From the IMG/VR virus record IMGVR_UViG_2695420482_000004: a DNA stretch of 11,785 bases; one strand, written 5' to 3'. Shown here one piece after another: positions 1 through 11,785 of the stretch. The DNA comes from a virus. Its lineage: Duplodnaviria > Heunggongvirae > Uroviricota > Caudoviricetes. The notes below the pieces were generated by a model. That model searched no databases, had not been told where the DNA came from, and saw only the letters and a program-made list of their open reading frames with translations. A program made the translations under genes and the position numbers. Position 1 is the first letter of the stretch. Each line of letters begins with the position of its first letter.

Positions 1-106
<106 letters not shown>

Positions 107-237
107 GAGTCGGAATGAAGCCAGGGCATTTGAGGATATGAACCCGGTTGACGGTCTGGATGAAATGCTGGTCAGCGTAAATGCAGCAAATCCGTTGAAT
201 AACTTTAAAGATACGAAAGGCAAAGAGGAAAAGAACG

Positions 238-837
238 ATGAATGACCGTGAAACGCGCTGTTACAGCGGGGAGGTGCGGGCGGAACAATATGATAATGCC
301 CCGACCCACATTCTGGGGTATGGCTCGGTATTTAACAGTCGTTCAGAACCTCTGTGGGGATTTCGTGAAATCATCAAGCCGGGGGCTTTTGATGATGTAC
401 TGAATGATGATGTACGTGGCTTGTTTAATCATGATCCTAATTTCATTCTCGGACGAAGTTCTGCCGGCACGTTGTCATTGTCGGTGGATGAACGCGGTTT
501 ACGTTATGACATTGTTGCACCGGATACTCCGACTATTTGTGACCTGGTGCTGTCTCCAATGTTGCGTGGTGACATTAATCAGTCCTCGTTCGCGTTTCGT
601 GTCGCCCGTGACGGAGAGAGCTGGTATGAAGACGACGAGGGGATTGTTATCCGGGAAATCACGCGCATTTCTCGTCTGTATGACGTCAGCCCGGTGACAT
701 ATCCGGCCTATCAGGACGCAGACTCTGGTGTCCGCTCAATGAAAGCCTGGCAGGAAGCGCGGGCGAGTGGTGCGCTGAAGAAAGCTGTTAACGAACGAAT
801 GGCGCGTGAGCGTCTTTTGACCCTTCTTAATGCATAA
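238..837 (+). CDS. Prohead maturation protease, HK97 family (peptidase S78-like)
   Basis: 199-aa ORF with ATG start preceded by AGAGGA about 8 nt upstream. The frame is closed by TGA at 196-198, so 238 is the first possible start. Protein carries the conserved His-containing block (GLFNHDPNFILGRS) typical of HK97 gp4-type proteases, and sits immediately 5' of the major capsid gene. Family assignment is from motif recall, not a search. Confidence 0.85.
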   Translation: MNDRETRCYSGEVRAEQYDNAPTHILGYGSVFNSRSEPLWGFREIIKPGAFDDVLNDDVRGLFNHDPNFILGRSSAGTLSLSVDERGLRYDIVAPDTPTICDLVLSPMLRGDINQSSFAFRVARDGESWYEDDEGIVIREITRISRLYDVSPVTYPAYQDADSGVRSMKAWQEARASGALKKAVNERMARERLLTLLNA

Positions 838-851
838 GGATACTACTGACG

Positions 852-2069
852 ATGAAACTTCATGAGATGAAGCAAAAACGAAACACCATTGCAAAGGATA
901 TGCGTGCACTGCATGAAAAAATTGGTGATAACGCATGGACTGATGAGCAACGGGCAGAGTGGAACAGGGCGAAAGCTGAGCTGGATGCGCTGGATGAGCA
1001 AATCGCCCGTGAAGAAGAGTTGCGCCGTCAGGATCAGGCATATGTGGATGAGTCCGGGCCGGAAGAGCGCCAGAATAATGAGGCGGAGAACGGGAAAAAG
1101 GCGGTGGAAGAGAAGCGTGCTGCGGCATTTAACCGTTTTCTGCGTGCCGGATTTGCAGAACTGAATGCTGAAGAGCGTAATCTGATGCGTGAACTGCGGG
1201 CTCAGAGTGTAACAACGGATTCTCAGGGCGGATATACGGTGCCCACGCAGATGCGTAACAAAATCATTGACACCATGAAGGCTTATGGCGGGATTGCCAG
1301 TGTGGCGCAACTTCTGACCACATCAACCGGGCAGGATATCACCTGGTCAACGTCTGATGGCACGACTGAAGAGGGCGAACTGCTGGCGGAAAATACAGCC
1401 GCAACGGAACAGGATGTGACGTTCGGGACCGCTATTCTGGGGGCTAAAAAGCTGTCATCAAAAATAATTCGTGTGTCCAATGAGCTGCTCCAGGACAGTG
1501 GGGTGGATATTGAATCTTATCTGGCAAACCGTATTGCCCAGCGTATTGGTCGTGGAGAGGCAAAATATCTGGTTCAGGGGACCGGAACGGGATCACCGTT
1601 ACAGCCAAAAGGGCTGGCAGCGTCGGTGACGGGAACCATCCAGACTGCAGCCTCTGCCGCTTTCACCTGGAAAGAAATGAATGCCCTGAAACATGCCATT
1701 GATCCGGCATATCGTGGTGGGCCGAAATACCGCTGGGCATTCAATGATGCCACATTGCAGACTATTGAAGAGATGGAGGATGGACAGAAACGCCCGTTAT
1801 GGCTGCCGGATATTGCAGGCGGTACGCCGGCTACTGTGCTGGGGATCCCTTATGTTATTGATCAGGCTATTGACGGGATTGGTACCGGAAAAAAATTCAT
1901 TTTCCTGGGGGATTTCAACCGCTTTATCATTCGCCGCGTTACTTATATGGAACTGAAACGTCTGGTTGAGCGTTATGCTGAGTTTGATCAGGTGGCATTT
2001 CTGGCTTTCCATCGTTTTGACTGTGTGCTGGAAGATGTGGCAGCCATCAAGGCGCTCACTGGCAAATAA
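852..2069 (+). CDS. Major capsid protein, HK97 fold, with N-terminal delta (scaffolding) domain
   Basis: 405-aa ORF. Residues 1-120 are charged, K/E/R-rich and coiled-coil-like (delta domain), followed by the GGYTVP motif typical of the mature HK97-fold start. Position directly after the protease matches HK97-type head modules. The nearest upstream AGGA is about 11 nt from the ATG. Confidence 0.9.
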   Translation: MKLHEMKQKRNTIAKDMRALHEKIGDNAWTDEQRAEWNRAKAELDALDEQIAREEELRRQDQAYVDESGPEERQNNEAENGKKAVEEKRAAAFNRFLRAGFAELNAEERNLMRELRAQSVTTDSQGGYTVPTQMRNKIIDTMKAYGGIASVAQLLTTSTGQDITWSTSDGTTEEGELLAENTAATEQDVTFGTAILGAKKLSSKIIRVSNELLQDSGVDIESYLANRIAQRIGRGEAKYLVQGTGTGSPLQPKGLAASVTGTIQTAASAAFTWKEMNALKHAIDPAYRGGPKYRWAFNDATLQTIEEMEDGQKRPLWLPDIAGGTPATVLGIPYVIDQAIDGIGTGKKFIFLGDFNRFIIRRVTYMELKRLVERYAEFDQVAFLAFHRFDCVLEDVAAIKALTGK

Positions 2070-2090
2070 CCACTCGTTGTTCAGTTACAG

Positions 2091-2112
2091 ACCGCGCCGA
2101 CGCGGTTTTTTT
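2091..2112 (+). terminator. Intrinsic terminator-like hairpin plus T7 tract after the major capsid gene
   Basis: ACCGCG (2091-2096), loop CCGA, CGCGGT (2101-2106), then seven T (2106-2112), 22 nt after the capsid stop. A second 6-bp GC hairpin (GCCCGC 2115-2120 / GCGGGC 2129-2134) lies directly before the connector RBS. Confidence 0.55.
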
Positions 2113-2145
2113 ATGCCCGCACAGTGTTGCGGGCAGGAGTTTCTG

Positions 2146-2463
2146 ATGGCAGCAATAGTGGAAAAACTCAGGGCGCAGTGCCGTATTGATACAGATGATG
2201 CAACTGATGATGAGTTACTGATGCTGTATTTCCGGGCTGCCTGCCGCAAGGCAGAAAATTTTATCAACCGTAAGCTTTATGAGGAGACGGTGCCGGAAGG
2301 TGATCCTGAAGGGGTGCTTATAGCTGATGATGTTTTGCTGGCGCTCATGTTGCTGGTCGGGCACTGGTACGAAAACCGGGAAAATTCCTCAGATGTCAGC
2401 AAGGCACCAGTCCCGTTTGGTTTTTCTTCTCTGCTGGAGCCTTATCGTTTTATTCCTTTGTAG
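2146..2463 (+). CDS. Head-tail connector protein (HK97 gp6-like)
   Basis: Start chosen at ATG 2146 with AGGAG at 2135-2139 (6-nt spacer). The longer ORF from 1966 overlaps the capsid gene and the terminator, and the in-frame ATG at 2113 sits in the T-tract with no RBS. 105-aa acidic protein with the LLxLYxxAA / WYENRE pattern typical of gp6-like connectors. Confidence 0.7.
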   Translation: MAAIVEKLRAQCRIDTDDATDDELLMLYFRAACRKAENFINRKLYEETVPEGDPEGVLIADDVLLALMLLVGHWYENRENSSDVSKAPVPFGFSSLLEPYRFIPL

Positions 2464-2471
2464 GAGGAGGC

Positions 2472-2810
2472 ATGCAGGCGGGCAGATTACGTGATCGCGT
2501 AATTATTCTGAATGTCACCACCGCCCGCTCTCCGTCAGGGCATCCGGTGGAGACGGTGACGGAGGGAGCTACCGTATGGGCAGAAGTTAAGGGTATCAGC
2601 GGGAGGGAGATAATCTCAGGCGGAGCAGAAACCGCTCAGGCTACGGTCAGAGTCTGGATGAGATTCCGGCGAGATGTAACAGCAACTTCATGTCTAAAAG
2701 TGCTGACCGGTGCATTTAAAGGGGCCATTCTGGGTATAGAAGGTCCACCAATACCGGATGCACGCGCTACCCGGCTTGAAATACTCTGCAGCCTGAAGGG
2801 GAATGTGTGA
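2472..2810 (+). CDS. Head closure / head-tail joining protein
   Basis: 112-aa ORF with a strong RBS (AGGAGGAGG at 2462-2470) before ATG 2472. Size, position (second gene after capsid) and pattern (RxRVxI...VWAEV...GRE...VRVWMRFRRDV) fit the head-tail joining family. Confidence 0.7.
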   Translation: MQAGRLRDRVIILNVTTARSPSGHPVETVTEGATVWAEVKGISGREIISGGAETAQATVRVWMRFRRDVTATSCLKVLTGAFKGAILGIEGPPIPDARATRLEILCSLKGNV

Positions 2811-3256
2811 TGGATTTCAGTCTTGATTTTTCTGGCCTGGCGGATATTGCACGGGATTTGGAGACGCTCAGCAGGGCAGAAAACAATAAGGTTCTGCGCG
2901 ATGCCACCCGTGCCGGTGCTGAAGTTATGCGGGATGCAGTTGTTGAACGTGCGCCAGAGCGAACCGGGAAACTGAAGAAAAATGTGGTTGTTCTCACTCA
3001 GCGTTCAAAGCGTCGGGGGGAAATTATCTCGGGTGTCCACATTCGCGGACGGAACCTGCGAACCGGAAACAGTGATAACAGCATGAAAGCCAGCGATCCC
3101 CGAAATGCATTTTACTGGCGCTTTGTGGAGCTGGGAACGATAAACATGCCCGCGCATCCATTCATTCGCCCGGCTTTCGATACGACAGAGGAGCTGGCGG
3201 CGCAGGTTGCCATACAGCGAATGAATCAGGCTATTGATGAGGTCTTAAGTAAATGA
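2810..3256 (+). CDS. HK97 gp10-like tail component protein
   Basis: ORF opens at GTG 2807 and ATG 2810. The ATG overlaps the upstream stop (TGATG), suggesting translational coupling. About 148 aa with the ERAPERTGKLKK motif characteristic of the HK97 gp10 family. Start could be 2807 or 2810. Confidence 0.65.
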   Translation: MDFSLDFSGLADIARDLETLSRAENNKVLRDATRAGAEVMRDAVVERAPERTGKLKKNVVVLTQRSKRRGEIISGVHIRGRNLRTGNSDNSMKASDPRNAFYWRFVELGTINMPAHPFIRPAFDTTEELAAQVAIQRMNQAIDEVLSK

Positions 3257-3597
3257 GGGAGGCCACACTGTATTCCCTGTTGTCTCAGCTGGCCGGAGGA
3301 CAGGTTTATCCTTATGTGGTCCCGCTGACGGAGGGAAAGCCTGCGGTATCTCCGCCGTGGCTGGTGTTTTCTGTGGTGTCTGACACGGTATCTGATGTGC
3401 TTGATGGGCAGGCTGAATCCAGAATTACCGTGCAGATCGATGTCTGGGCGACAGTACCTGATGACGCAGATAATATTCGTGAGCAGGCGCTTGATGCGGT
3501 AAGAAAACTGGCACCCTCCGTTATTTCTAAAACGCAGGGTTATGATCCTGACTCCCGTCTGAGCAGAGCCACGCTTGAATTCCAGGTAATAGCCTGA
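3253..3597 (+). CDS. Tail completion / tail terminator-like protein (DUF3168-like)
   Basis: 114-aa ORF whose ATG overlaps the upstream stop (ATGA at 3253-3256). Last small gene before the major tail protein, which is the usual place for the tail terminator/completion protein. Family call is by position and composition only. Confidence 0.55.
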   Translation: MREATLYSLLSQLAGGQVYPYVVPLTEGKPAVSPPWLVFSVVSDTVSDVLDGQAESRITVQIDVWATVPDDADNIREQALDAVRKLAPSVISKTQGYDPDSRLSRATLEFQVIA

Positions 3598-3617
3598 GGT
3601 CATTAATGATTTTACCC

Positions 3618-3645
3618 ACCCGCCGCTGGCGGGTTTTTTTATTTT
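3618..3645 (+). terminator. Intrinsic terminator-like hairpin plus T-tract upstream of the major tail protein gene
   Basis: ACCCGCC (3618-3624), loop GCT, GGCGGGT (3628-3634), then T7 (3634-3640) and ATTTT. It is followed by AGGAG (3647-3651) and ATG 3658. Confidence 0.5.
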
Positions 3646-3657
3646 CAGGAGACGAGT

Positions 3658-4362
3658 ATGTCCTCTAATTTTGAGCGTTCGCAACTGACGAAAATTATGA
3701 TTTCGTCTGCACCGGTAACAGCAGAAACCCTGGATTCTGCCAGCTATCTTGGCCTGAGCTGTACAATCAAAGAGGTGCAGTTTACCGCAGGACAAAAGCA
3801 GGATATTGATGTCACCACGCTGTGTTCTGTTGAGCAGGAAAATATTAACGGTCTTGGGGCTGCTTCAGAGATTTCCATGTCAGGCAACTTTTATCTGAAT
3901 GCTGCCCAGAACGCGTTGCGCAGTGCCTATGACAATGACACCACGTATGGCTTTAAAGTTATTTTTCCGTCAGGCAACGGATTTACCTTTATGGCAGAGG
4001 TGCGTCAGCATACCTGGTCTGCAGGAACCAATGGTGTTGTGGCTGCAACGTTTTCTCTGCGCCTGAAAGGTAAGCCTGTGCTGACGACAGAGCCGCTGAA
4101 AGTGAAGGTCGATTTAAAAAGCACGCTGCGGGTTGCTTCCGGAGCGAAACTTGAAATGGCGGTTGAGGCTGTGGGTGGTGTGCCGCCTTATTCTTATGCC
4201 TGGAAAAAAGGTGGTTCTCCTGTTTCCGGACAGACGGCGGCAACGTTCAGTAAGGCATCAGCAGCATCCGGTGATGCCGGTGCGTATACCTGCGAGATTT
4301 CTGATTCAGCGAGCCCGGTTAACAAAGTGACCTCCACTTCCTGCACTGTAACCGTCAGTTAA
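3658..4362 (+). CDS. Major tail (tube) protein with C-terminal Ig-like domain
   Basis: 234-aa ORF with AGGAG 6 nt upstream of the ATG. It is the gene immediately 5' of the G/GT chaperone pair, the canonical position of the major tail protein. The C-terminal ~85 residues (GGVPPYSYAWKKGG...AGAYTCEISD...TVTVS) look like an Ig-like (I-set-type) domain, as seen on many siphovirus tail tube proteins. Confidence 0.85.
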   Translation: MSSNFERSQLTKIMISSAPVTAETLDSASYLGLSCTIKEVQFTAGQKQDIDVTTLCSVEQENINGLGAASEISMSGNFYLNAAQNALRSAYDNDTTYGFKVIFPSGNGFTFMAEVRQHTWSAGTNGVVAATFSLRLKGKPVLTTEPLKVKVDLKSTLRVASGAKLEMAVEAVGGVPPYSYAWKKGGSPVSGQTAATFSKASAASGDAGAYTCEISDSASPVNKVTSTSCTVTVS

Positions 4363-4376
4363 TGAGGATGGATGTG

Positions 4377-4748
4377 ATGACTAAAAATATCCGTAATCTG
4401 GCACTGGCAACGATGTCGGGGTTTCGCCATAAAACCGTTGATGTGCCTGAATGGGAGGGAGCAACGGTTGTGTTACGGGAACCTTCTGCAGAAGCCTGGT
4501 TGCGCTGGCAGGAGATCGTTAAAGCAAAAGATGATGAGACACCGTTATCCGTTGCGGAGCGCGCCCGCCGAAATCTGGAGGCAGATGTTGAACTGTTCAT
4601 TGATGTTCTGTGTGATACCGGACTGCAACCCGTATTTTCAGAGGATGATCGTGAACAGGTGATTGCCGTGTATGGCCCGGTGCATGCGCGGCTTCTTCGG
4701 CAGTCTCTGGAACTGATCAGTGATGCCGGCGAGGTTAAAAAAAAGTAG
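4377..4748 (+). CDS. Tail assembly chaperone (lambda gpG analogue)
   Basis: ORF is open from ATG 4362, which overlaps the major tail protein stop (TAATG). I prefer ATG 4377 (or GTG 4374) because GAGGA at 4364-4368 gives an 8-nt spacer. It ends with KKK-stop on an A8G run that forms the slippery site, and sits between the major tail and tape measure genes. Confidence 0.75.
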   Translation: MTKNIRNLALATMSGFRHKTVDVPEWEGATVVLREPSAEAWLRWQEIVKAKDDETPLSVAERARRNLEADVELFIDVLCDTGLQPVFSEDDREQVIAVYGPVHARLLRQSLELISDAGEVKKK

Positions 4749-5050
4749 CGCTTCCGGGGATGCGTTTTCTGATGATGCTGGCGCTCAGGATGGGGCGCAC
4801 ATTGTCAGAGTTACGCCGGGAAATGTCCGCATCAGAAATCATGATGTGGGCAGAATTTGACAGGTTCAGCCCGCTGGGGGACGAACGGGCTGATTTCCGG
4901 GCTGCCCAGATTGTTTCAGCTGTTTACGGTGCGCAGGGGGTCAAAGTGTCACTGAATGATGCGCTTCTTCAGTGGGAGAAGGAGCAGACAGAAGGCGCTT
5001 CAGATCCATTTGCCGGACTGGAAAACGCGCTTTTAATAGTGTCTCAGTGA
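4377..5050 (+). CDS. Tail assembly chaperone G-T fusion (product of -1 frameshift at 4739-4745)
   Basis: Joining the G frame through the AAG codon (4743-4745) to the -1 frame from 4745 gives a fusion of about 224 aa, ending at TGA 5048-5050. The conserved G/GT arrangement upstream of the tape measure gene in siphoviruses supports this. Confidence 0.6.
4739..4745 (+). other. Programmed -1 ribosomal frameshift slippery heptamer A AAA AAG
   Basis: X XXY YYZ heptamer in the G zero frame, 1 nt before the G stop (TAG 4746-4748). The -1 frame is closed by TAA at 4736-4738 and opens exactly at the slip site, then runs to 5050. Confidence 0.65.
4745..5050 (+). CDS. T-frame segment of the GT fusion (lambda gpT-like extension); probably not independently initiated
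   Basis: The -1 frame is open from 4739. The ORF track reports it from ATG 4760 (96 aa), but there is no convincing RBS before 4760. It is best read as the frameshift extension of G. Confidence 0.5.
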   Translation, partial: VALPGMRFLMMLALRMGRTLSELRREMSASEIMMWAEFDRFSPLGDERADFRAAQIVSAVYGAQGVKVSLNDALLQWEKEQTEGASDPFAGLENALLIVSQ

Positions 5051-5058
5051 GTCAACAT

Positions 5059-5080
5059 AACCGCTTCGGCGGTTTTTTTT
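5059..5080 (+). terminator. Intrinsic terminator-like hairpin plus T8 tract between GT and the tape measure gene
   Basis: AACCGC (5059-5064), loop TTCG, GCGGTT (5069-5074), with a T8 run at 5073-5080, directly before the tape measure RBS. Confidence 0.5.
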
Positions 5081-5090
5081 CGTCCGGAGA

Positions 5091-8000
5091 ATGAGTGTGG
5101 CGACATTACGTGAACTGATTATTAAAATCTCGGCAAATTCCCGGTCATTCCAGTCAGAGATCTCCCGGGCTTCGCGTATGGGGCAGGATTACTACCGTAC
5201 CATGCAGAACGGAGGCCGGCAGTCCGCTGCTGCATCCCGTGAAATGCGGCGTGCACTGGCAGAAGTGACGGATCAGATAAATACAGCTAAATCTTCGGCA
5301 CTGAATATGGCGGGGGCATTTGCCGGGGCTTTTGCTACCGGTCATCTTATTTCTCTCGCCGATGAGTGGAATTCAGTAAATGCCCGTCTGAAGCAGGCCT
5401 CACAGTCCAGTGATGATTTTCAGGTATCACAACGTGAATTAATGGCGATCAGCCAGAGAACGGGGACGGCGTTTTCTGATAACGCCAGCCTTTTTGCCCG
5501 TTCTGCAGCTTCCATGCGGGAGTATGGTTACAGTTCTGAGGAGGTACTGAAAGTCACCGAGGCGATCTCCACGGGCCTGAAATTATCCGGTGCCAGTACA
5601 GCAGAAGCCAGTTCGGTGATCACGCAGTTCAGTCAGGCACTGGCGCAGGGAGTGCTGCGCGGTGAAGAGTTTAACTCGGTGAATGAGAGCGGTGATCGTG
5701 TTATTCGTGCGCTGGCTGCGGGAATGGGCGTTGCCCGTAAGGATCTGAAGGCCATGGCGGATAACGGAAAACTAACCGCCGATAAGGTTGTTCCTGCACT
5801 GATTAGTCAGCTTGGGGCGTTGCGTGATGAATATGCAGCAATGCCTGATACGGTTTCATCCTCTGCAACCAAAGTTGAAAACGCCTTTATGGCCTGGGTT
5901 GGTGGTGCGAACGAGGCAAGCGGAGTGACGAAGACGCTCTCCGGGGTGCTGAATGGTCTTGCAGGCAATATTGATACCGTGGCAACCGCTGCCGGTGCTC
6001 TGGTTGCCGTCGGGGTAGCCCGATATTTTGGCAATATGGCGTCTTCTGCTGGATCTGCAACTGCCGGATTAATTACTGCAGCCAGAAACGAAGTGGCTCT
6101 TGCTGAAGCGCAACTTCGGGGGACACAGATAGCAACCGCCAGGGCGCGTGCGGCGGTTTATCGTGCGCAACAGGCGGTTGTTGCTGCTCGCGGTACCGAA
6201 AGGCAGGCCGCAGCAGAAGCGAAGCTGACAGCTGCTCAGGCGTCACTTACCCGTAATATTGCGGCCAGAACAGCGGCACAGACAACGCTGAATACTGTCA
6301 CGTCAGTGGGGAGTCGTCTGTTAAGTGGTGCGCTGGGGTTGGTTGGTGGTGTGCCGGGACTCGTCATGCTGGGGGCGACGGCCTGGTACACGATGTATCA
6401 GAATCAGGAGCAGGCCAGAGAATCTGCACGCCAGTATGCCGCAACAATCGACGAAATTCGCCAGAAAACGTCGGCAATGTCGCTTCCTGAAGCGTCAGAT
6501 AATGAGGAAAAGACGCGGCAGGCACTTGATGAGCAAAACAGGTTAATTGACGAGCAGAAAAGTAAGATTAAATCCTTACAGGAAAAAATTGCTGGCTATC
6601 AGTATGTGCTGGCAAACCCGGGCTGGACAACCGATAACGGTTTTATGATTAACCACATGACGTCGGTAAAAACTGTCACAGAAGGGCTTGCAGAAGCAAC
6701 AAATCAACTGGCAGTTGAACAGTCCCGTCTCACACAAATGCAGGGCAAAGCGCAATCCATTCAGGATGTGCTTGCCGGGCTGGAGGAGCGACGGGTAGCG
6801 TTGATCCGTCAACAGGCCGCGGAACAAAACAAAGCGTATCAGTCCCTGTTGATCATGAATGGGCAGCATACCGAGTTTAATCGCCTTCTCGGGCTCGGTA
6901 ATGAATTACTTCAGCAGCGACAGGGGCTGGTGAATGTACCGTTACGGCTACCACAGGCAACCCTGGATGATAAACAGCAGACTGCACTGAATAACAGCGA
7001 GCGCGAACTGGCTCTGTCCCGCCTGAAGGGGGAAGCCCGTGAGCGTGCCCGCCTGGGTTATGCTGCGGATGATCTCGGCTTTGTGGGAGAGGCGTATCAG
7101 ACAGCCAGACAGAATTATATCAATAACTCACTGGATGCCTGGCGAAATAACCAGGCAAATAAACCCAAAGCGCATAAAAAGACCGAAGCGGAAAAAACAG
7201 AAGATATTTATAAACGGCTGATTAAACAGCAAAAAGAACAAATAGCACTGGCAGGGCAGAATACTGAACTGGCTAAGATGAAATATCAGGTCAGTCAGGG
7301 CGAATTATCAACCCTGTCAGAAGCGCAGAAAAAAACGCTTTTGCAGAATGCAGCACTCATCGACCAGAAAAAGATTCGTGAGCAGCTTGCTGCGTATGAA
7401 AGCAGCCTGGCGGACAGTAATGCCAGTGCCCGGGCATCTGACGACGCGCAGTTACTGGGATATGGTGAAGGCTCACGGATGCGTGAACGACTCCAGGAAA
7501 TGTGGAGTATCCGGCATGAGTTTGAGCAGAAAAATAACGAGCTTCTGAGACAGTATCAGGCCGGAGAAATTGAAGAAGCCCTGTGGAAACAGGAGAAAGA
7601 ACTGAATAAAAAATATCTGGAAGAGCGTCTCAGCGATCAGCAGGATTATTATGCAAAGGCCGATGCTTTACGTAATAACTGGAATGCAGGACTCCAGGAG
7701 GGGCTGACCAACTGGGCAGACAGTGCCACCGATTATGCTTCGCAGGCGGCAGATGCTGTCGTTTCCACTATGGACGGACTGGTATCAAATATTTCCGATG
7801 CACTGGCCGGAAATGTTGTGGACTGGAGAAACTGGGGGAGTTCAGTTCTCCGGGAAGTTTCAAAAATTCTGATGAATGCGGCCATTGTTAACGGACTGAA
7901 GTCACTCTCCGGTGCCGGAGGGTGGCTTGGTACGGTCGGCGGATGGATTTCGGGGGCGGTGGCAAACGCAAAAGGTGGTGTTTACACATCGGCAAATCTG

Positions 8001-8324
8001 AGTGCTTACAGTAACACTATTGTGGATACACCGACGTATTTTGCTTTTGCGAAAGGTGCCGGGCTGATGGGCGAGGCCGGGCCTGAAGCTATCATGCCAC
8101 TGACACGGGCAGCGGACGGCTCTCTTGGGGTCAGAGCCATTGGCAATGTGAATAGTGGCGGGGGGGTTGTTTATTCTCCCGTGTATCACATCAGCATTCA
8201 GAATCAAGGGAGCAATGGCGAGATAGATGCGCGCTCAGCCAGGGGATTGGTGGATCTGATCGACAGCAGGGTTGTGTCAATTATGCAGTCATCGCGTCGG
8301 GATGGAGGATTGTACAGTGCCTGA
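5091..8324 (+). CDS. H: Tail tape measure protein (lambda gpH family C-terminus)
   Basis: 1077-aa ORF immediately after G/GT. Long alpha-helical, Ala/Gln/Glu/Lys-rich coiled-coil composition with internal hydrophobic segments. The C-terminal region (NWRNWGSSVLREVSKILMNAAIVNGL ... RRDGGLYSA) resembles my recollection of the lambda gpH C-terminal domain. Start may be ATG 5091 (GGAG only 1 nt upstream) or GTG 5097 (7-nt spacer). Confidence 0.9.
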   Translation: MSVATLRELIIKISANSRSFQSEISRASRMGQDYYRTMQNGGRQSAAASREMRRALAEVTDQINTAKSSALNMAGAFAGAFATGHLISLADEWNSVNARLKQASQSSDDFQVSQRELMAISQRTGTAFSDNASLFARSAASMREYGYSSEEVLKVTEAISTGLKLSGASTAEASSVITQFSQALAQGVLRGEEFNSVNESGDRVIRALAAGMGVARKDLKAMADNGKLTADKVVPALISQLGALRDEYAAMPDTVSSSATKVENAFMAWVGGANEASGVTKTLSGVLNGLAGNIDTVATAAGALVAVGVARYFGNMASSAGSATAGLITAARNEVALAEAQLRGTQIATARARAAVYRAQQAVVAARGTERQAAAEAKLTAAQASLTRNIAARTAAQTTLNTVTSVGSRLLSGALGLVGGVPGLVMLGATAWYTMYQNQEQARESARQYAATIDEIRQKTSAMSLPEASDNEEKTRQALDEQNRLIDEQKSKIKSLQEKIAGYQYVLANPGWTTDNGFMINHMTSVKTVTEGLAEATNQLAVEQSRLTQMQGKAQSIQDVLAGLEERRVALIRQQAAEQNKAYQSLLIMNGQHTEFNRLLGLGNELLQQRQGLVNVPLRLPQATLDDKQQTALNNSERELALSRLKGEARERARLGYAADDLGFVGEAYQTARQNYINNSLDAWRNNQANKPKAHKKTEAEKTEDIYKRLIKQQKEQIALAGQNTELAKMKYQVSQGELSTLSEAQKKTLLQNAALIDQKKIREQLAAYESSLADSNASARASDDAQLLGYGEGSRMRERLQEMWSIRHEFEQKNNELLRQYQAGEIEEALWKQEKELNKKYLEERLSDQQDYYAKADALRNNWNAGLQEGLTNWADSATDYASQAADAVVSTMDGLVSNISDALAGNVVDWRNWGSSVLREVSKILMNAAIVNGLKSLSGAGGWLGTVGGWISGAVANAKGGVYTSANLSAYSNTIVDTPTYFAFAKGAGLMGEAGPEAIMPLTRAADGSLGVRAIGNVNSGGGVVYSPVYHISIQNQGSNGEIDARSARGLVDLIDSRVVSIMQSSRRDGGLYSA

Positions 8325-8658
8325 GCCTGAAGTTTTTAACTGGATCCCCCGTGAGGGGATGGAGACGACACGAAAGCCATCAGTTATTACGGTAAAGTTT
8401 GGTGACGGATATGAACAGCGACGGGCTGGTGGTCTGAATGCGGATCTGAAAACGTTTAAACCGGTATTTCGTGTCACAGATGAATATTCCCGTGCCGCGC
8501 TGGACAGTTTTTTATCCCGTCATGCCGGGATTCGTGCTTTTTTGTGGCGTCCGCCAAAACACAACAGGACTGTCCGGGTTGTCTGCAGGGAGTGGAGCAT
8601 TTCGGATAATGCCATGTATACCGATTTTAACTGTACCTTTGAAGAGGTCACTCACTGA
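8317..8658 (+). CDS. M: Minor tail protein M (tail tip)
   Basis: Frame is open from TTG 8272, but that would overlap the tape measure gene by about 50 nt. In-frame ATG 8302 and GTG 8317 are better candidates; GGAGG at 8304-8308 gives an 8-nt spacer to 8317. Contains the KFGDGYEQR...GLNADLKT block recalled from lambda gpM. Stop overlaps the L start (TGATG). Confidence 0.8.
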   Translation: MPEPEVFNWIPREGMETTRKPSVITVKFGDGYEQRRAGGLNADLKTFKPVFRVTDEYSRAALDSFLSRHAGIRAFLWRPPKHNRTVRVVCREWSISDNAMYTDFNCTFEEVTH

Positions 8659-9356
8659 TGCAGGATATACAGCAGGAAACACTCAATGAGTGCACTAAAA
8701 CGGAGCAATCCGCGCTGATCGTGCTCTGGGAAGTCGATCTGACAGAGGTCGGCGGAGAACGTTATTTTTTCTGTAATGAGCAGAACGAAAAAGGTGAGTC
8801 GGTCACCTGGCAGGGGCGACAGTATCAGGCGTACCCTATTCAGGGAAGCGGCTTTGAGATGAACGGCAAAGGAGCCAGTGCAAGACCAACGCTGAAAGTC
8901 TCTAACCTGCACGGCATGGTCACCGGGATGGCGGAAGACCTGCAGAGTCTGGTCGGCGGAACGGTGGTCAGGCGTAAGGTTTACGCCCGTTTTCTGGATG
9001 CGGTGAACTTCGTCAACGGAAACAGTGACGCCGATCCGGAGCAGGAGGTGATCAGCCGCTGGCGCATCGAGCAGTGCAGCGAACTGAGCGCGGTCAGTGC
9101 CTCCTTTGTGTTGTCCACACCGACGGAAACGGATGGTGCCGTTTTTCCGGGGCGCATCATGCTGGCCAACACCTGCACCTGGATCTACCGCGGCGATGAG
9201 TGCGGTTATGATGGCCCGGCTGTCGCGGATGAATATGACCAGCCAACGTCCGATATCACGAAGGATAAGTGCAGCAAATGCCTGAGTGGTTGCAAGTTCC
9301 GCAATAACGTCGGCAATTTTGGCGGCTACCTTTCCATTAACAAACTTTCGCAGTAA
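8658..9356 (+). CDS. L: Minor tail protein L (tail tip, Fe-S cluster-binding Cys motif)
   Basis: 232-aa ORF, the same length as lambda gpL, and near-identical to it along its length by recall. C-terminal cysteines at residues 173, 182, 205, 208 and 212. Confidence 0.9.
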   Translation: MQDIQQETLNECTKTEQSALIVLWEVDLTEVGGERYFFCNEQNEKGESVTWQGRQYQAYPIQGSGFEMNGKGASARPTLKVSNLHGMVTGMAEDLQSLVGGTVVRRKVYARFLDAVNFVNGNSDADPEQEVISRWRIEQCSELSAVSASFVLSTPTETDGAVFPGRIMLANTCTWIYRGDECGYDGPAVADEYDQPTSDITKDKCSKCLSGCKFRNNVGNFGGYLSINKLSQ

Positions 9357-9361
9357 ATCCC

Positions 9362-10105
9362 ATGACAGAGACAGAATCAGCGATTCTGGCGCACGCCCGG
9401 CGATGTGCGCCAGCGGAGTCGTGCGGCTTCGTGGTGAGAACGCCGGAAGGGGAAAGATATTTTCCCTGCGTGAATATCTCTGGTGAGCCGGAGGAGTATT
9501 TCCGGATGTCGCCGGAGGACTGGCTGAGTGCAGAAATGCAGGGAGAGATTGTGGCGCTGGTCCACAGCCACCCCGGTGGTCTGCCCTGGCTGAGTGAGGC
9601 CGACCGGCGGCTGCAGGTGCAGAGTGATTTGCCGTGGTGGCTGGTCTGCCGGGGGGCGATTCATAAATTCCGCTGTGTGCCGCATCTCACCGGGCGGCGC
9701 TTTGAGCACGGGGTGACGGACTGTTACACGCTGTTCCGGGACGCTTACCATCTGGCGGGAATTGAGATGCCGGATTTTCATCGCGGGGATGACTGGTGGC
9801 GTCACGGCCAGAATCTCTATCTGGATAATATGGAGGCAACGGGGTTGTATCAGGTGCCGTTGTCAGCGGCCCAGCCGGGCGATGTGCTGCTGTGCTGTTT
9901 TGGTTCATCGGTGCCGAATCATGCCGCCATTTACTGTGGCGACGGCGAGCTGCTGCACCATATTCCTGAACAACTGAGTAAACGAGAGAGGTACACCGAC
10001 AAATGGCAGCGACGCACACACTCCCTCTGGCGTCACCGGGCATGGCACGCATCTGCCTTTACGGGGATTTGCAACGATTTGGTCGCCGTATCGACCTTCG
10101 TGTGA
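9362..10105 (+). CDS. K: Tail assembly protein K (N-terminal MPN/JAB metallopeptidase-like plus C-terminal NlpC/P60 cysteine peptidase-like)
   Basis: 247-aa ORF. JAMM-type motif HSHPGG...SEAD at residues 68-81 with an upstream AESCG element at 18-22. A Cys (GVTDCYTLF) and His (PNHAAIY) pair in the C-terminal half is consistent with NlpC/P60. From the internal Met (ATG 9506, GAGGAG 9 nt upstream) the sequence matches the 199-aa lambda K by recall. The longer form from ATG 9362 includes the N-terminal MPN elements and is preferred. Confidence 0.85.
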   Translation: MTETESAILAHARRCAPAESCGFVVRTPEGERYFPCVNISGEPEEYFRMSPEDWLSAEMQGEIVALVHSHPGGLPWLSEADRRLQVQSDLPWWLVCRGAIHKFRCVPHLTGRRFEHGVTDCYTLFRDAYHLAGIEMPDFHRGDDWWRHGQNLYLDNMEATGLYQVPLSAAQPGDVLLCCFGSSVPNHAAIYCGDGELLHHIPEQLSKRERYTDKWQRRTHSLWRHRAWHASAFTGICNDLVAVSTFV

Positions 10106-10650
10106 AAACGGGGGCTGAAGCCATCCGGGCACTGGCCACACAGCTCCCGGTGTTTCGTCAGAAACTGAATGAGGGCTGGTATCAGGTGCGCATTGCCGGG
10201 CGTGATGCAGGCGAAAATGAATTATCTGCCCGTCTTAATGAGCCGCTGGCAAATGGTGCCGTGATCCACATCGTGCCGCGTCTGGCGGGAGCTAAAAGTG
10301 GCGGTGTGTTTCAGGTGGTGCTTGGGGCGGCGCTGATTGCGGTGGCATGGTGGAACCCTGTGGGCTGGCTGGGGGCCGCGGCTGTATCGGGCATGTATGC
10401 GGCAGGGGCCAGTATGATCCTGGGCGGAGTGGCGCAGATGCTGGCACCGAAAGCCAGGACGCCCACGGCAGCCAGTACAGATAACGGCAAACAGAACACC
10501 TATTTCTCCTCACTGGATAACATGGTTGCCCAGGGCAATGTTCTGCCTGTTCTGTACGGTGAAATGCGCGTGGGGTCACGTGTGGTTTCTCAGGAGATCA
10601 GCACGGCAGACGAAGGGGATGGTGGTCAGGTTGTGGTGATTGGTCGCTGA
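10003..10650 (+). CDS. I: Tail assembly protein I (N-terminal ubiquitin-like domain, hydrophobic C-terminal region)
   Basis: 215-aa ORF. The N-terminus MAATHTLPLASPGMARICLYGDLQRFGRRIDLRVKTGAEAIRALATQLP matches lambda gpI as I recall it. Overlaps the 3' end of K by 103 nt in a different frame, as in lambda. Gly-Gly at residues 100-101 followed by a hydrophobic stretch. Confidence 0.9.
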   Translation: MAATHTLPLASPGMARICLYGDLQRFGRRIDLRVKTGAEAIRALATQLPVFRQKLNEGWYQVRIAGRDAGENELSARLNEPLANGAVIHIVPRLAGAKSGGVFQVVLGAALIAVAWWNPVGWLGAAAVSGMYAAGASMILGGVAQMLAPKARTPTAASTDNGKQNTYFSSLDNMVAQGNVLPVLYGEMRVGSRVVSQEISTADEGDGGQVVVIGR

Positions 10651-10668
10651 TGCAAAATGTTTTATGTG

Positions 10669-10700
10669 AAACCGCCTCCGGGCGGTTTTATCGTTTATGG
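10669..10700 (+). terminator. GC hairpin with weak T-tract between I and J (terminator-like or RNA processing/stability element)
   Basis: AAACCGCC (10669-10676), loop TCCG, GGCGGTTT (10681-10688), followed by TTTTATCGTTT. The T-tract is interrupted, so it is weaker than the other three. Confidence 0.35.
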
Positions 10701-10710
10701 AGCGTGAGGA

Positions 10711-11785
10711 ATGGGTAAAGGCAGCAGTAAGGGGCATACCCCGCGCGAAGCGAAGGACAACCTGAAGTCCACGCAGCTGCTGAGTGTGATCGATGCCATC
10801 AGCGAAGGGCCGGTTGAAGGTCCGGTGGATGGATTAAAAAGCGTGCTGCTGAACAGTACGCCGGTGCTGGACAGTGAGGGGAATACCAATATATCCGGCG
10901 TCACGGTGGTGTTCCGGGCCGGTGAGCAGGAGCAGACACCGCCGGAGGGATTTGAATCCTCCGGCTCCGAGACGGTGCTCGGTACAGAAGTGAAATATGA
11001 CACGCCGATCACCCGCGCCATCACGTCGGCAAACATCGACCGACTGCGCTTTACCTTCGGTGTGCAGGCACTGGTGGAAACCACCTCAAAGGGGGACCGG
11101 AATCCGTCGGAAGTTCGCCTGCTGGTTCAGATACAGCGTAATGGTGGCTGGGTGACGGAAAAAGACATCACCATTAAGGGCAAAACCACCTCGCAGTATC
11201 TGGCCTCGGTGGTGGTGGATAACCTGCCGCCGCGCCCGTTTAATATCCGGATGCGCAGAATGACGCCGGACAGCACCACAGACCAGCTGCAGAACAAAAC
11301 GCTCTGGTCGTCATACACCGAAATCATCGATGTGAAACAGGGCTACCCGAACACGGCACTGGTCGGCGTAAAGGTGGATTCGGAGCAGTTCGGCAGCCAG
11401 CAGGTGAGCCGTAATTATCATCTTCGCGGGCGTATTCTGCAGGTGCCGTCGAACTATAACCCGCAGACGCGGCAATACAGCGGTATCTGGGACGGAACGT
11501 TAAAACCGGCATACAGCAACAACCCGGCCTGGTGTCTGTGGGATATGCTGACCCACCCGCGCTACGGCATGGGGAAACGTCTTGGTGCGGCGGATGTGGA
11601 TAAATGGGCGCTGTATGTCATCGGCCAGTACTGCGACCAGTCGGTGCCGGACGGCTTTGGCGGCACGGAGCCGCGCATTACCTGTAATGCGTACCTGACC
11701 ACACAGCGTAAGGCGTGGGATGTGCTCAGTGATTTCTGCTCGGCGATGCGCTGTATGCCGGTATGGAACGGGCAGACGCTGACGT
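10711..11785 (+). CDS. J: Host specificity / central tail fibre protein J (5' partial; continues beyond window end)
   Basis: ATG 10711 with GGAG 8 nt upstream; open to the window end (358 codons, no stop). N-terminus MGKGSSKGHTPREAKDNLKSTQLLSVIDAISEGP... matches lambda gpJ by recall. It is not in the ORF track because it lacks a stop in the window. Confidence 0.9.
   Translation, partial: MGKGSSKGHTPREAKDNLKSTQLLSVIDAISEGPVEGPVDGLKSVLLNSTPVLDSEGNTNISGVTVVFRAGEQEQTPPEGFESSGSETVLGTEVKYDTPITRAITSANIDRLRFTFGVQALVETTSKGDRNPSEVRLLVQIQRNGGWVTEKDITIKGKTTSQYLASVVVDNLPPRPFNIRMRRMTPDSTTDQLQNKTLWSSYTEIIDVKQGYPNTALVGVKVDSEQFGSQQVSRNYHLRGRILQVPSNYNPQTRQYSGIWDGTLKPAYSNNPAWCLWDMLTHPRYGMGKRLGAADVDKWALYVIGQYCDQSVPDGFGGTEPRITCNAYLTTQRKAWDVLSDFCSAMRCMPVWNGQTLT

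Follow-up and report, generated by a model that had tools for sequence, protein, structure and literature searches.

The virus record IMGVR_UViG_2695420482_000004 (Caudoviricetes), a stretch of 11,785 nucleotides (nt) referred to in its whole length as the window, very probably represents the late structural operon of a lambdoid Escherichia coli prophage whose virion genes derive from two lineages. A head and tail shaft unlike those of phage lambda appear to have been joined by recombination to a lambda-type tail tip comprising L, K, I and the 5' part of J. This reading, with a probability of about 0.9, is supported by three independent lines of evidence, namely the incongruent relationships of shaft and tip, their synonymous divergence (dS) from lambda, and their guanine-cytosine (GC) content at third codon positions (GC3). 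An earlier sequence-only reading had placed the recombination junction around the 3' end of the tape measure gene H or in M. The existence of a junction is well supported; its position, however, is probably at or just inside the boundary between M and L and not in the tape measure gene.

In a blastn comparison with lambda (NC_001416), a single block was recovered in which window positions 8638–11785 correspond to lambda positions 13409–16579 at 91.1% identity. Upstream of this block, nucleotide similarity to lambda is limited to a 58-nt match of 76% in the core of M. The sliding identity plot that had been proposed for locating the breakpoint does so clearly: in a global alignment, identity to lambda per 100 nt amounts to 40–60% up to position 8645, with alignment noise at ~45%, and then rises to 76, 84, 95, 84, 81, and 92%. 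Beyond the transitional 5' part of L it stays at 90–100% to the window end, except at approximately 10190–10470 (47–71%, with indels). Low identity of L, K, I, and J to lambda, which the sequence-only reading had counted as grounds for its own dismissal, was not seen, as DNA identity over 8655–11785 is 91%. Megablast matches of lambda-like phages and of thousands of E. coli genomes begin at window position 8654–8655, which points to a junction at M/L rather than in the tape measure gene.

At this boundary lies a 14-mer, CTGATGCAGGATAT (Table 1), which is identical in the window, lambda, mEp460, vB_EcoS-640R1 (640R1), BP-4795, and the prophage of E. coli EC32, and is absent from HK97. In an alignment of the first five of these, unrelated M 3' ends converge on the invariant CTGATGCAGGATAT. 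Furthermore, M travels with H: the M protein is 100% identical to that of 640R1, and it is 65% identical to that of BP-4795, where H is 77% identical. A junction inside the 3' end of the tape measure gene was rejected, since H and M co-vary in every comparison and identity to lambda is at noise level through M apart from the 58-nt core. Flanking “homologous recombination traces” beside mosaics have been described by De Paepe et al. (PMC3945230). The transitional zone in the 5' part of L resembles such a trace, which suggests homeologous recombination.

The two halves of the window appear to have different nearest relatives. The shaft is closest to HK97, while the tip is 92–97% identical to lambda at the amino acid (aa) level yet 34–40% identical to HK97. 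Compared with lambda, dS amounts to 0.35 in L, 0.145 in K, and 0.114 in the N-terminal 358 residues of J (J-N), as opposed to 1.6 in M and 2.0 in H. In composition, GC content is 51.7% over 107–8654 and 57.8% over 8655–11785, and the shift in GC content and codon usage that had been anticipated near 8.2–8.7 kb is thus present. GC3 is 0.47–0.57 in every gene from the protease to M (0.47 in M) and reaches 0.67 in L, 0.68 in K, 0.60 in I, and 0.73 in J, so that the rise falls exactly from M to L. In lambda, GC3 is uniformly high (0.58–0.69 from E to J); by composition the cassette thus suits a lambda-like backbone and is foreign in the window, although GC3 gives no more than a weak hint of the direction of transfer.

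Alternatively, the tip genes could have evolved slowly from a common lambdoid ancestor under stronger purifying selection and without any recombination. The tip proteins form an interlocked complex (PMC10721106), and L, the C-terminus of I, and J are conserved even in the distant BP-4795 (77–85% aa identity), as such an account would predict. Nevertheless, it is very improbable and was rejected on the basis of dS, the incongruence with HK97, and the GC3 step. M and H exceed L, K, and J in dS from lambda by a factor of 5–15, a gap that stronger constraint on the proteins is unable to produce and that, like the GC3 step, excludes simple slow evolution of the tip genes. HK97, the closest named relative of the shaft, has a tip just 34–40% identical to that of the window, GC3 changes abruptly at the boundary, and identity shifts within approximately 100 nt at a gene boundary.

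The non-lambda shaft is specifically HK97-like. Amino acid identity to the HK97 counterparts is 64% for the head closure protein, 80% for the gp10-like protein, and 51% for the tail completion protein. The tube protein is 72% identical to HK97 gp12, which is of equal length, and likewise 72% identical to the tube protein of BP-4795, while G and T are 64 and 61% identical to HK97 gp13/14. For H, identity is 77% to BP-4795, 55% to HK97, and 27% to lambda, where the match covers only the C-terminal quarter. The protease, capsid, connector proteins, tube, G, and T have no tblastn match in lambda NC_001416. Head genes and a major tail protein unlike those of lambda had been proposed from the sequence, and both the lack of tblastn matches and the differing Pfam families agree with this. 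The same had been said of G and of its frameshift product GT, which applies to G (PF06222, as opposed to PF06894 in lambda, and without a tblastn match) and not to T, which shares the Pfam family of lambda T (PF06223). The Pfam profile of the tube protein resembles HK97 gp12 and differs from that of lambda V (PF16461 and Big_2).

The head is of the HK97 type at the family level only and is not close to HK97 gp4/gp5. An HK97-type head consists of a prohead protease and a delta-domain capsid protein and lacks separate genes for scaffold and decoration; the Peptidase_S78 protease directly followed by a PF05065 capsid protein that marks this arrangement is present. HK97 gp4 and gp5 match the Pfam families of the protease and capsid of the window, whereas lambda C belongs to S49 and lambda E to Phage_cap_E. 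Identity between the capsid protein and HK97 gp5 is as low as 24% over 129 aa (E = 2e-5); for the protease, tblastn gave no match in HK97. Lambda is characterized by its head genes C, nu3, D, and E and its tube gene V. Judged by the different Pfam families of head and tube and by the absence of genome-wide nucleotide similarity, the window does not belong to the genus Lambdavirus.

In gene order and domains, the tip is a siphophage tail-tip module of lambda type (gpM-gpL-gpK-gpI-gpJ). Its five genes are collinear on one strand, and, as in lambda, I begins before K has ended, with an overlap of 103 nt. M had been described as homologous to lambda gpM but diverged, which is accurate (40% aa identity, E = 4e-26; 46% to mEp460). 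Across five lineages, M has 17 invariant positions, and the motifs GDGY.Q, GLN, FL..H.G, and F.W.PP as well as short motifs in the C-terminus of H, which meets the tip, are kept despite 27–40% identity. The near-identity to lambda that had been claimed for L, K, I, and J-N was found for L (92%), K (96% over the 199 aa annotated in lambda), and J-N (97.5% over residues 1–358) and was overstated for I (78–82%, dS 0.59). Nucleotide identity to L, K, and J of lambda is at least 90% and dS is low in K and J-N, with the lower 5' part of L as the exception, which indicates a recent common ancestry with these lambda genes and makes them a mosaic segment above 90% identity in the sense of PMC3945230; gene I as a whole falls short of 90%. 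The four cysteines of gpL (C173, C182, C205, and C212 in lambda) hold a [4Fe-4S] cluster (PMC10721106), and none of them varies when the window is aligned with lambda, mEp460, BP-4795, and 640R1. The C-terminal half of gpI is nearly invariant across lineages.

For K, tblastn returned 86% identity over 235 aa, a lower value that stems from the loss of 1 nt upstream in the lambda reference. This deletion, near lambda position 14266 (within 14133–14875) relative to K of the window, mEp460, and 640R1, splits the frame in two: an open reading frame (ORF) of 76 aa, and the K annotated in lambda, which has 199 aa and begins only within the JAB domain, so that the N-terminal part of this domain is missing. 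An intact K of 247 aa with complete JAB/MPN and NlpC/P60 domains is common to the window, mEp460, and 640R1. The deletion is either a mutation of the laboratory strain or an old sequence or annotation issue.

Over 107–11785, the closest phages are 640R1 (ON470612; 97.9% nt identity) and PhiR49_2 (PV340570; 97.4%), and a prophage of E. coli EC32 (NZ_CP085619) is 99.98% identical across the junction. All three have the whole arrangement from protease to J and the M/L junction as in the window; they lack the IS100 end that the window has in its portal gene. The arrangement is thus already known and common, an established lineage and not an event unique to this genome. Uniform similarity to one phage, named by the sequence-only reading as an outcome that would speak against it, is nominally present in 640R1, while the mosaic relation to lambda and HK97 remains; the mosaic is therefore an old and successful lineage and not a single-genome event. 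The EC32 prophage (1–32400 of the EC32 stretch analyzed) occupies the ydfJ site, which in K-12 is taken by the cryptic Qin prophage, and is flanked by pinQ, tfaQ, ydfK, and ynfT. With iss/bor, iraM, hokD, and two tRNA genes among its contents, it looks like an intact relative of Qin.

The number of L–J copies per E. coli genome has a median of 3 and reaches 15. Such a repeat could have led to a chimeric contig assembled from two co-resident prophages, and several assemblies of induced prophages do break at 8658 or elsewhere in L–J. In ON470621, ON470586, ON470607, LR597642, LN997803, ON470619, ON470580, and ON470583, the match ends at window positions 8658, 8975, 9440, 10650, and 11196. Assemblies ending at M/L or inside L–J are consistent with short-read breaks at the multi-copy cassette. 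An origin of the junction itself in misassembly is scarcely credible and was rejected on the strength of finished genomes and independent phage isolates. The junction is intact (7400–9900) in 886 of 5,426 complete E. coli genomes, 4,373 of which contain the cassette, and one complete genome is 100% identical over 7400–9900. It also occurs in independent phage records from different laboratories and in the finished EC32 chromosome.

Lambda, mEp460/cdtI, and E. coli prophages in the thousands have the L-K-I-J cassette in common with the window, at a DNA identity of approximately 91–96%. Three shaft types (lambda, mEp460/cdtI, and the lineage of the window) carry L at identities of at least 92% and K and J at approximately 97%, joined at the same CTGATGCAGGATAT, while between mEp460 and lambda V is 55% and M 56% identical. 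Patchiness is also seen inside the cassette. Within gene I, a segment encoding a linker and a hydrophobic stretch exists in two alleles, one in lambda and BP-4795 and the other in the window, mEp460, and 640R1; in the window it differs from lambda by indels as well and is identical to mEp460 (Table 1). These groupings cut across the relationships of the flanking sequence. Compared with 640R1, the left part of the window is 98.96% and L–J 95.0% identical (Fisher p = 6e-34), and even within the window's own lineage the history of the cassette is a separate one. The multi-copy L–J block provides ample substrate for recombination between prophages. Later and apparently still ongoing patch-wise exchange with other prophages probably accounts for the mEp460-type patch in I and for the higher divergence of L–J than of the shaft among the closest relatives.

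This sharing also bears on where the cassette came from. L–J might have originated in this lineage, or in one not yet sampled, and have been imported from there into lambda and mEp460, or gene conversion might continuously homogenize it among all co-resident lambdoid prophages so that neither donor nor recipient can be named. Three different shaft lineages have the cassette in common, it is patchy in the 5' zone of L and in gene I, its divergence among the closest relatives exceeds that of the shaft, and its multi-copy state favors gene conversion. A reversed or third-party origin of this kind is nonetheless unlikely, given that the GC3 of the cassette (0.60–0.73) fits lambda (0.58–0.69) and not the left module (approximately 0.50) or the mEp460 shaft (0.54–0.60). 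Composition rather favors a high-GC3 backbone, lambda-like or BP-4795-like, as the putative long-term home of the cassette.

Structural work on lambda suggests how a recombined tail could function. In the lambda virion, gpL, gpI, and the N-terminus of gpJ form one conical hub and are together equivalent to the T5 hub protein pb3 (PMC10721106). Hub and tube are connected by a hexamer of gpM, whose beta-sandwich is stacked on gpV and whose E-loops stack electrostatically on the gpL/gpJ ring; the C-terminal helix of gpH is gripped by a tripod of gpI, and the virion contains no gpK (PMC10721106). The proposed left module (107–8654) would contribute the HK97-family head, a connector and tube of the HK97 kind, G/GT, the tape measure protein, and the ring of gpM, and the right module (8655 onward) the gpL, gpK, gpI, and gpJ cassette. 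Recombination of two lambdoid genomes, at the M/L boundary or slightly within L, presumably brought the modules together. The interlocked hub of gpL, gpI, and the gpJ N-terminus would then move as a unit and be left whole by a cut between M and L, while the tube-facing gpM adaptor would stay with its own tube and tape measure. From the adaptor position of gpM it follows that M/L would be a permissive seam. The hybrid tail is probably functional, as judged from induced and sequenced phages with the same arrangement.

CTGATGCAGGATAT might also have a role beyond translational coupling, as a conserved linker or a site favored for crossovers, repeatedly directing the exchange of L-K-I-J between unrelated shafts, in which case gpM would be a universal adaptor tolerant of foreign hubs. 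It is common to lineages whose M genes are 40–65% identical. This sharing would be equally well explained if recombinants arose at random and selection retained those joined at a permissive gene boundary, and a directing role is improbable.

Several points weigh against the recombination of a non-lambda shaft with a lambda-type tip as drawn here. The argument for structural compatibility is transferred from lambda and would hold for the window only by analogy. The identity gradient over 8655–8950 may reflect several overlapping events rather than one, and the exact crossover cannot be fixed. Likewise, the direction of transfer is unproven, composition being a weak guide. The phage collection was searched for a parent that matches H and M at high identity yet has another tip, and none was found; every record there that is at least 96% identical to the left part and extends past 8658 also has a lambda-type L. 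The founding event is therefore old and beyond reconstruction, and the nearest “unrecombined” cousin is the BP-4795/Shiga toxin (Stx) phage type at approximately 77%. Finally, the portal gene is cut by an insertion sequence (IS), IS100, and the window's own prophage copy is thus probably defective and unable to form heads. At 106|107 the IS100kyp end adjoins the C-terminal portion of the portal gene, and among the phage records and complete E. coli genomes searched, none contains this junction.

The late structural genes form an uninterrupted operon on the + strand of the window according to ORF calls and Pfam matches (Table 1). In the capsid protein, the Phage_capsid domain (aa 126–403) is preceded by an N-terminal extension. 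The slippery heptamer A_AAA_AAG lies directly before the stop codon of G, and the T frame is open in −1 to 5050; a G-T fusion by the predicted −1 frameshift would give the expected G/GT chaperone arrangement. The heptamer is dnaX-like, as opposed to G_GGA_AAG in lambda. Position 8272, with which the lambda-like module had been said to begin, marks the longest ORF with a TTG start and lies inside the 3' end of H; a start of M at 8302–8317 is supported by homologues and by both database annotations, and the tip genes were otherwise placed correctly.

Table 1. Features of the window, with Pfam matches (E-value; bit score, for tip proteins with the gathering cut-off after the slash) and nucleotide identities of segments to lambda and mEp460.
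Feature	Position	Strand	Match or description	Identity to lambda	Identity to mEp460
IS100kyp (IS21-family) 3' end	1–106		istB end and terminal repeat ending ...TTGACA; 100% identity		
Prohead protease	238–837	+	Peptidase_S78, 1.6e-40; 139		
Major capsid protein	852–2069	+	Phage_capsid PF05065, 2e-70; 238		
Ad1 connector (head-tail joining)	2146–2463	+	PF05135		
Head closure	2472–2810	+	PF05521		
HK97-gp10-like	2807–3256	+	PF04883		
Tail completion/tail terminator	3253–3597	+	PF11367		
Major tail (tube) protein, 234 aa	3658–4362	+	HK97 gp12-like, C-terminal Ig domain		
Tail assembly chaperone G	4362 or 4377 to 4748	+	Phage_TAC_1, 2.7e-58		
Slippery heptamer A_AAA_AAG	4739–4745	+	Read directly from the sequence		
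T frame, −1 relative to G	to 5050	+	Phage_tail_T, 2e-19		
Tape measure protein H, 1077 aa, HK97/Stx-phage type	5091–8324	+	Phage_HK97_TLTM, 1e-93; TMP_3; Tape_meas_lam_C		
gpM-type distal tail protein, last gene of the left (shaft) module	8317–8658	+	Phage_min_tail, 1.5e-31; 109.4/39		
Junction 14-mer CTGATGCAGGATAT	8655–8668	+	M stop (TGA) overlapping L start (ATG) and first four L codons		
gpL hub protein, 232 aa, lambda-type	8658–9356	+	Phage_tail_L, 5e-99; 330.1/25		
Transitional zone of intermediate identity (5' part of L, first ~300 nt)	8655–8950	+		85.5%	81.4%
Segment from transitional zone to gene I patch	8951–10190			94.7%	96.6%
gpK, 247 aa, intact JAB/MPN and NlpC/P60	9362–10105	+	Prok-JAB, 8e-14; 51.9/25; NLPC_P60, 1.6e-12; 47.8/23		
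gpI, 215 aa, 103-nt overlap with K	10003–10650	+	Lambda_tail_I, 3e-24; 85.6/23.8		
Mosaic patch inside gene I, ~aa 63–156 (linker and hydrophobic segment)	10191–10470	+	mEp460-type allele	59.2%	100%
Segment from gene I patch to window end	10471–11785			96.1%	96.5%
gpJ, N-terminal 358 aa (central fiber/hub), cut by window end	10711–11785	+	FNIII-A_GpJ, 2e-42; 144.7/27		

Host range had been described as unreadable from the window, which the complete J gene of the EC32 prophage corroborates (23312–26710 of the EC32 stretch analyzed, outside the window). Its product is 95–99% identical to lambda J until residue ~985 and approximately 40% identical thereafter, and its C-terminal region is also unlike those of mEp460 and 640R1. 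A second mosaic junction, independent of the one at M/L, thus lies at the receptor-binding domain of J, and the receptor-binding end exchanges independently of the hub. Host range is consequently to be read from the J C-terminus and the side fibers, which exchange separately.

Taken as a whole, the window offers a clean and quantified case of the modular exchange typical of lambdoid phages, real but ordinary and a matter of textbook mosaicism. Its significance lies mostly in annotation: the L-K-I-J hub can be treated as a cassette found in at least three shaft lineages, with gpM as the seam, and tail-tip genes are unusable for classifying such prophages. A practical warning for prophage binning is that short-read assemblies tend to break at the M/L boundary.

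Among known systems, the tip of lambda itself (M–J; NC_001416, 13100–18903) has the same gene order, K/I overlap, and Pfam families as that of the window, whereas everything upstream of L is unrelated or distantly related. Conversely, the HK97 (NC_002167) shaft from gp7 to gp16 has the gene order of the window and near-identical gene lengths (identical for tube and G), while its tip is distant (M 39, L 34, K 35, I 35, and J 40% aa identity) and its M–J genes are interrupted by morons. mEp460/cdtI has nearly the same cassette (L–J 95.6% nt identity; I 100, K 97 over 247 aa, J-N 98, and L 92% aa identity) on a Gifsy-2-type head with fused ClpP-type protease and capsid and on a shaft that also differs from that of the window; here M is 46% and H 29–32% identical (32% over the C-terminal third by tblastn, 28.5% in a full-length alignment). 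In the tails of BP-4795 and of Stx1a- and Stx2-converting phages (Marienburgvirus type), G to J are homologous throughout at approximately 77% nt identity (H 77, M 65, L 77, K 85, I 62, and J 80% aa identity for BP-4795), and divergence is roughly even across M/L and thus without discordance, although the head differs. Mosaicism of lambdoid late operons was reportedly described for HK97 and HK022 by Juhala et al. in 2000. Mosaic late operons of this kind, with head and tail genes as separately transferred modules, are standard among lambdoid phages (PMC9836094; PMC3945230).

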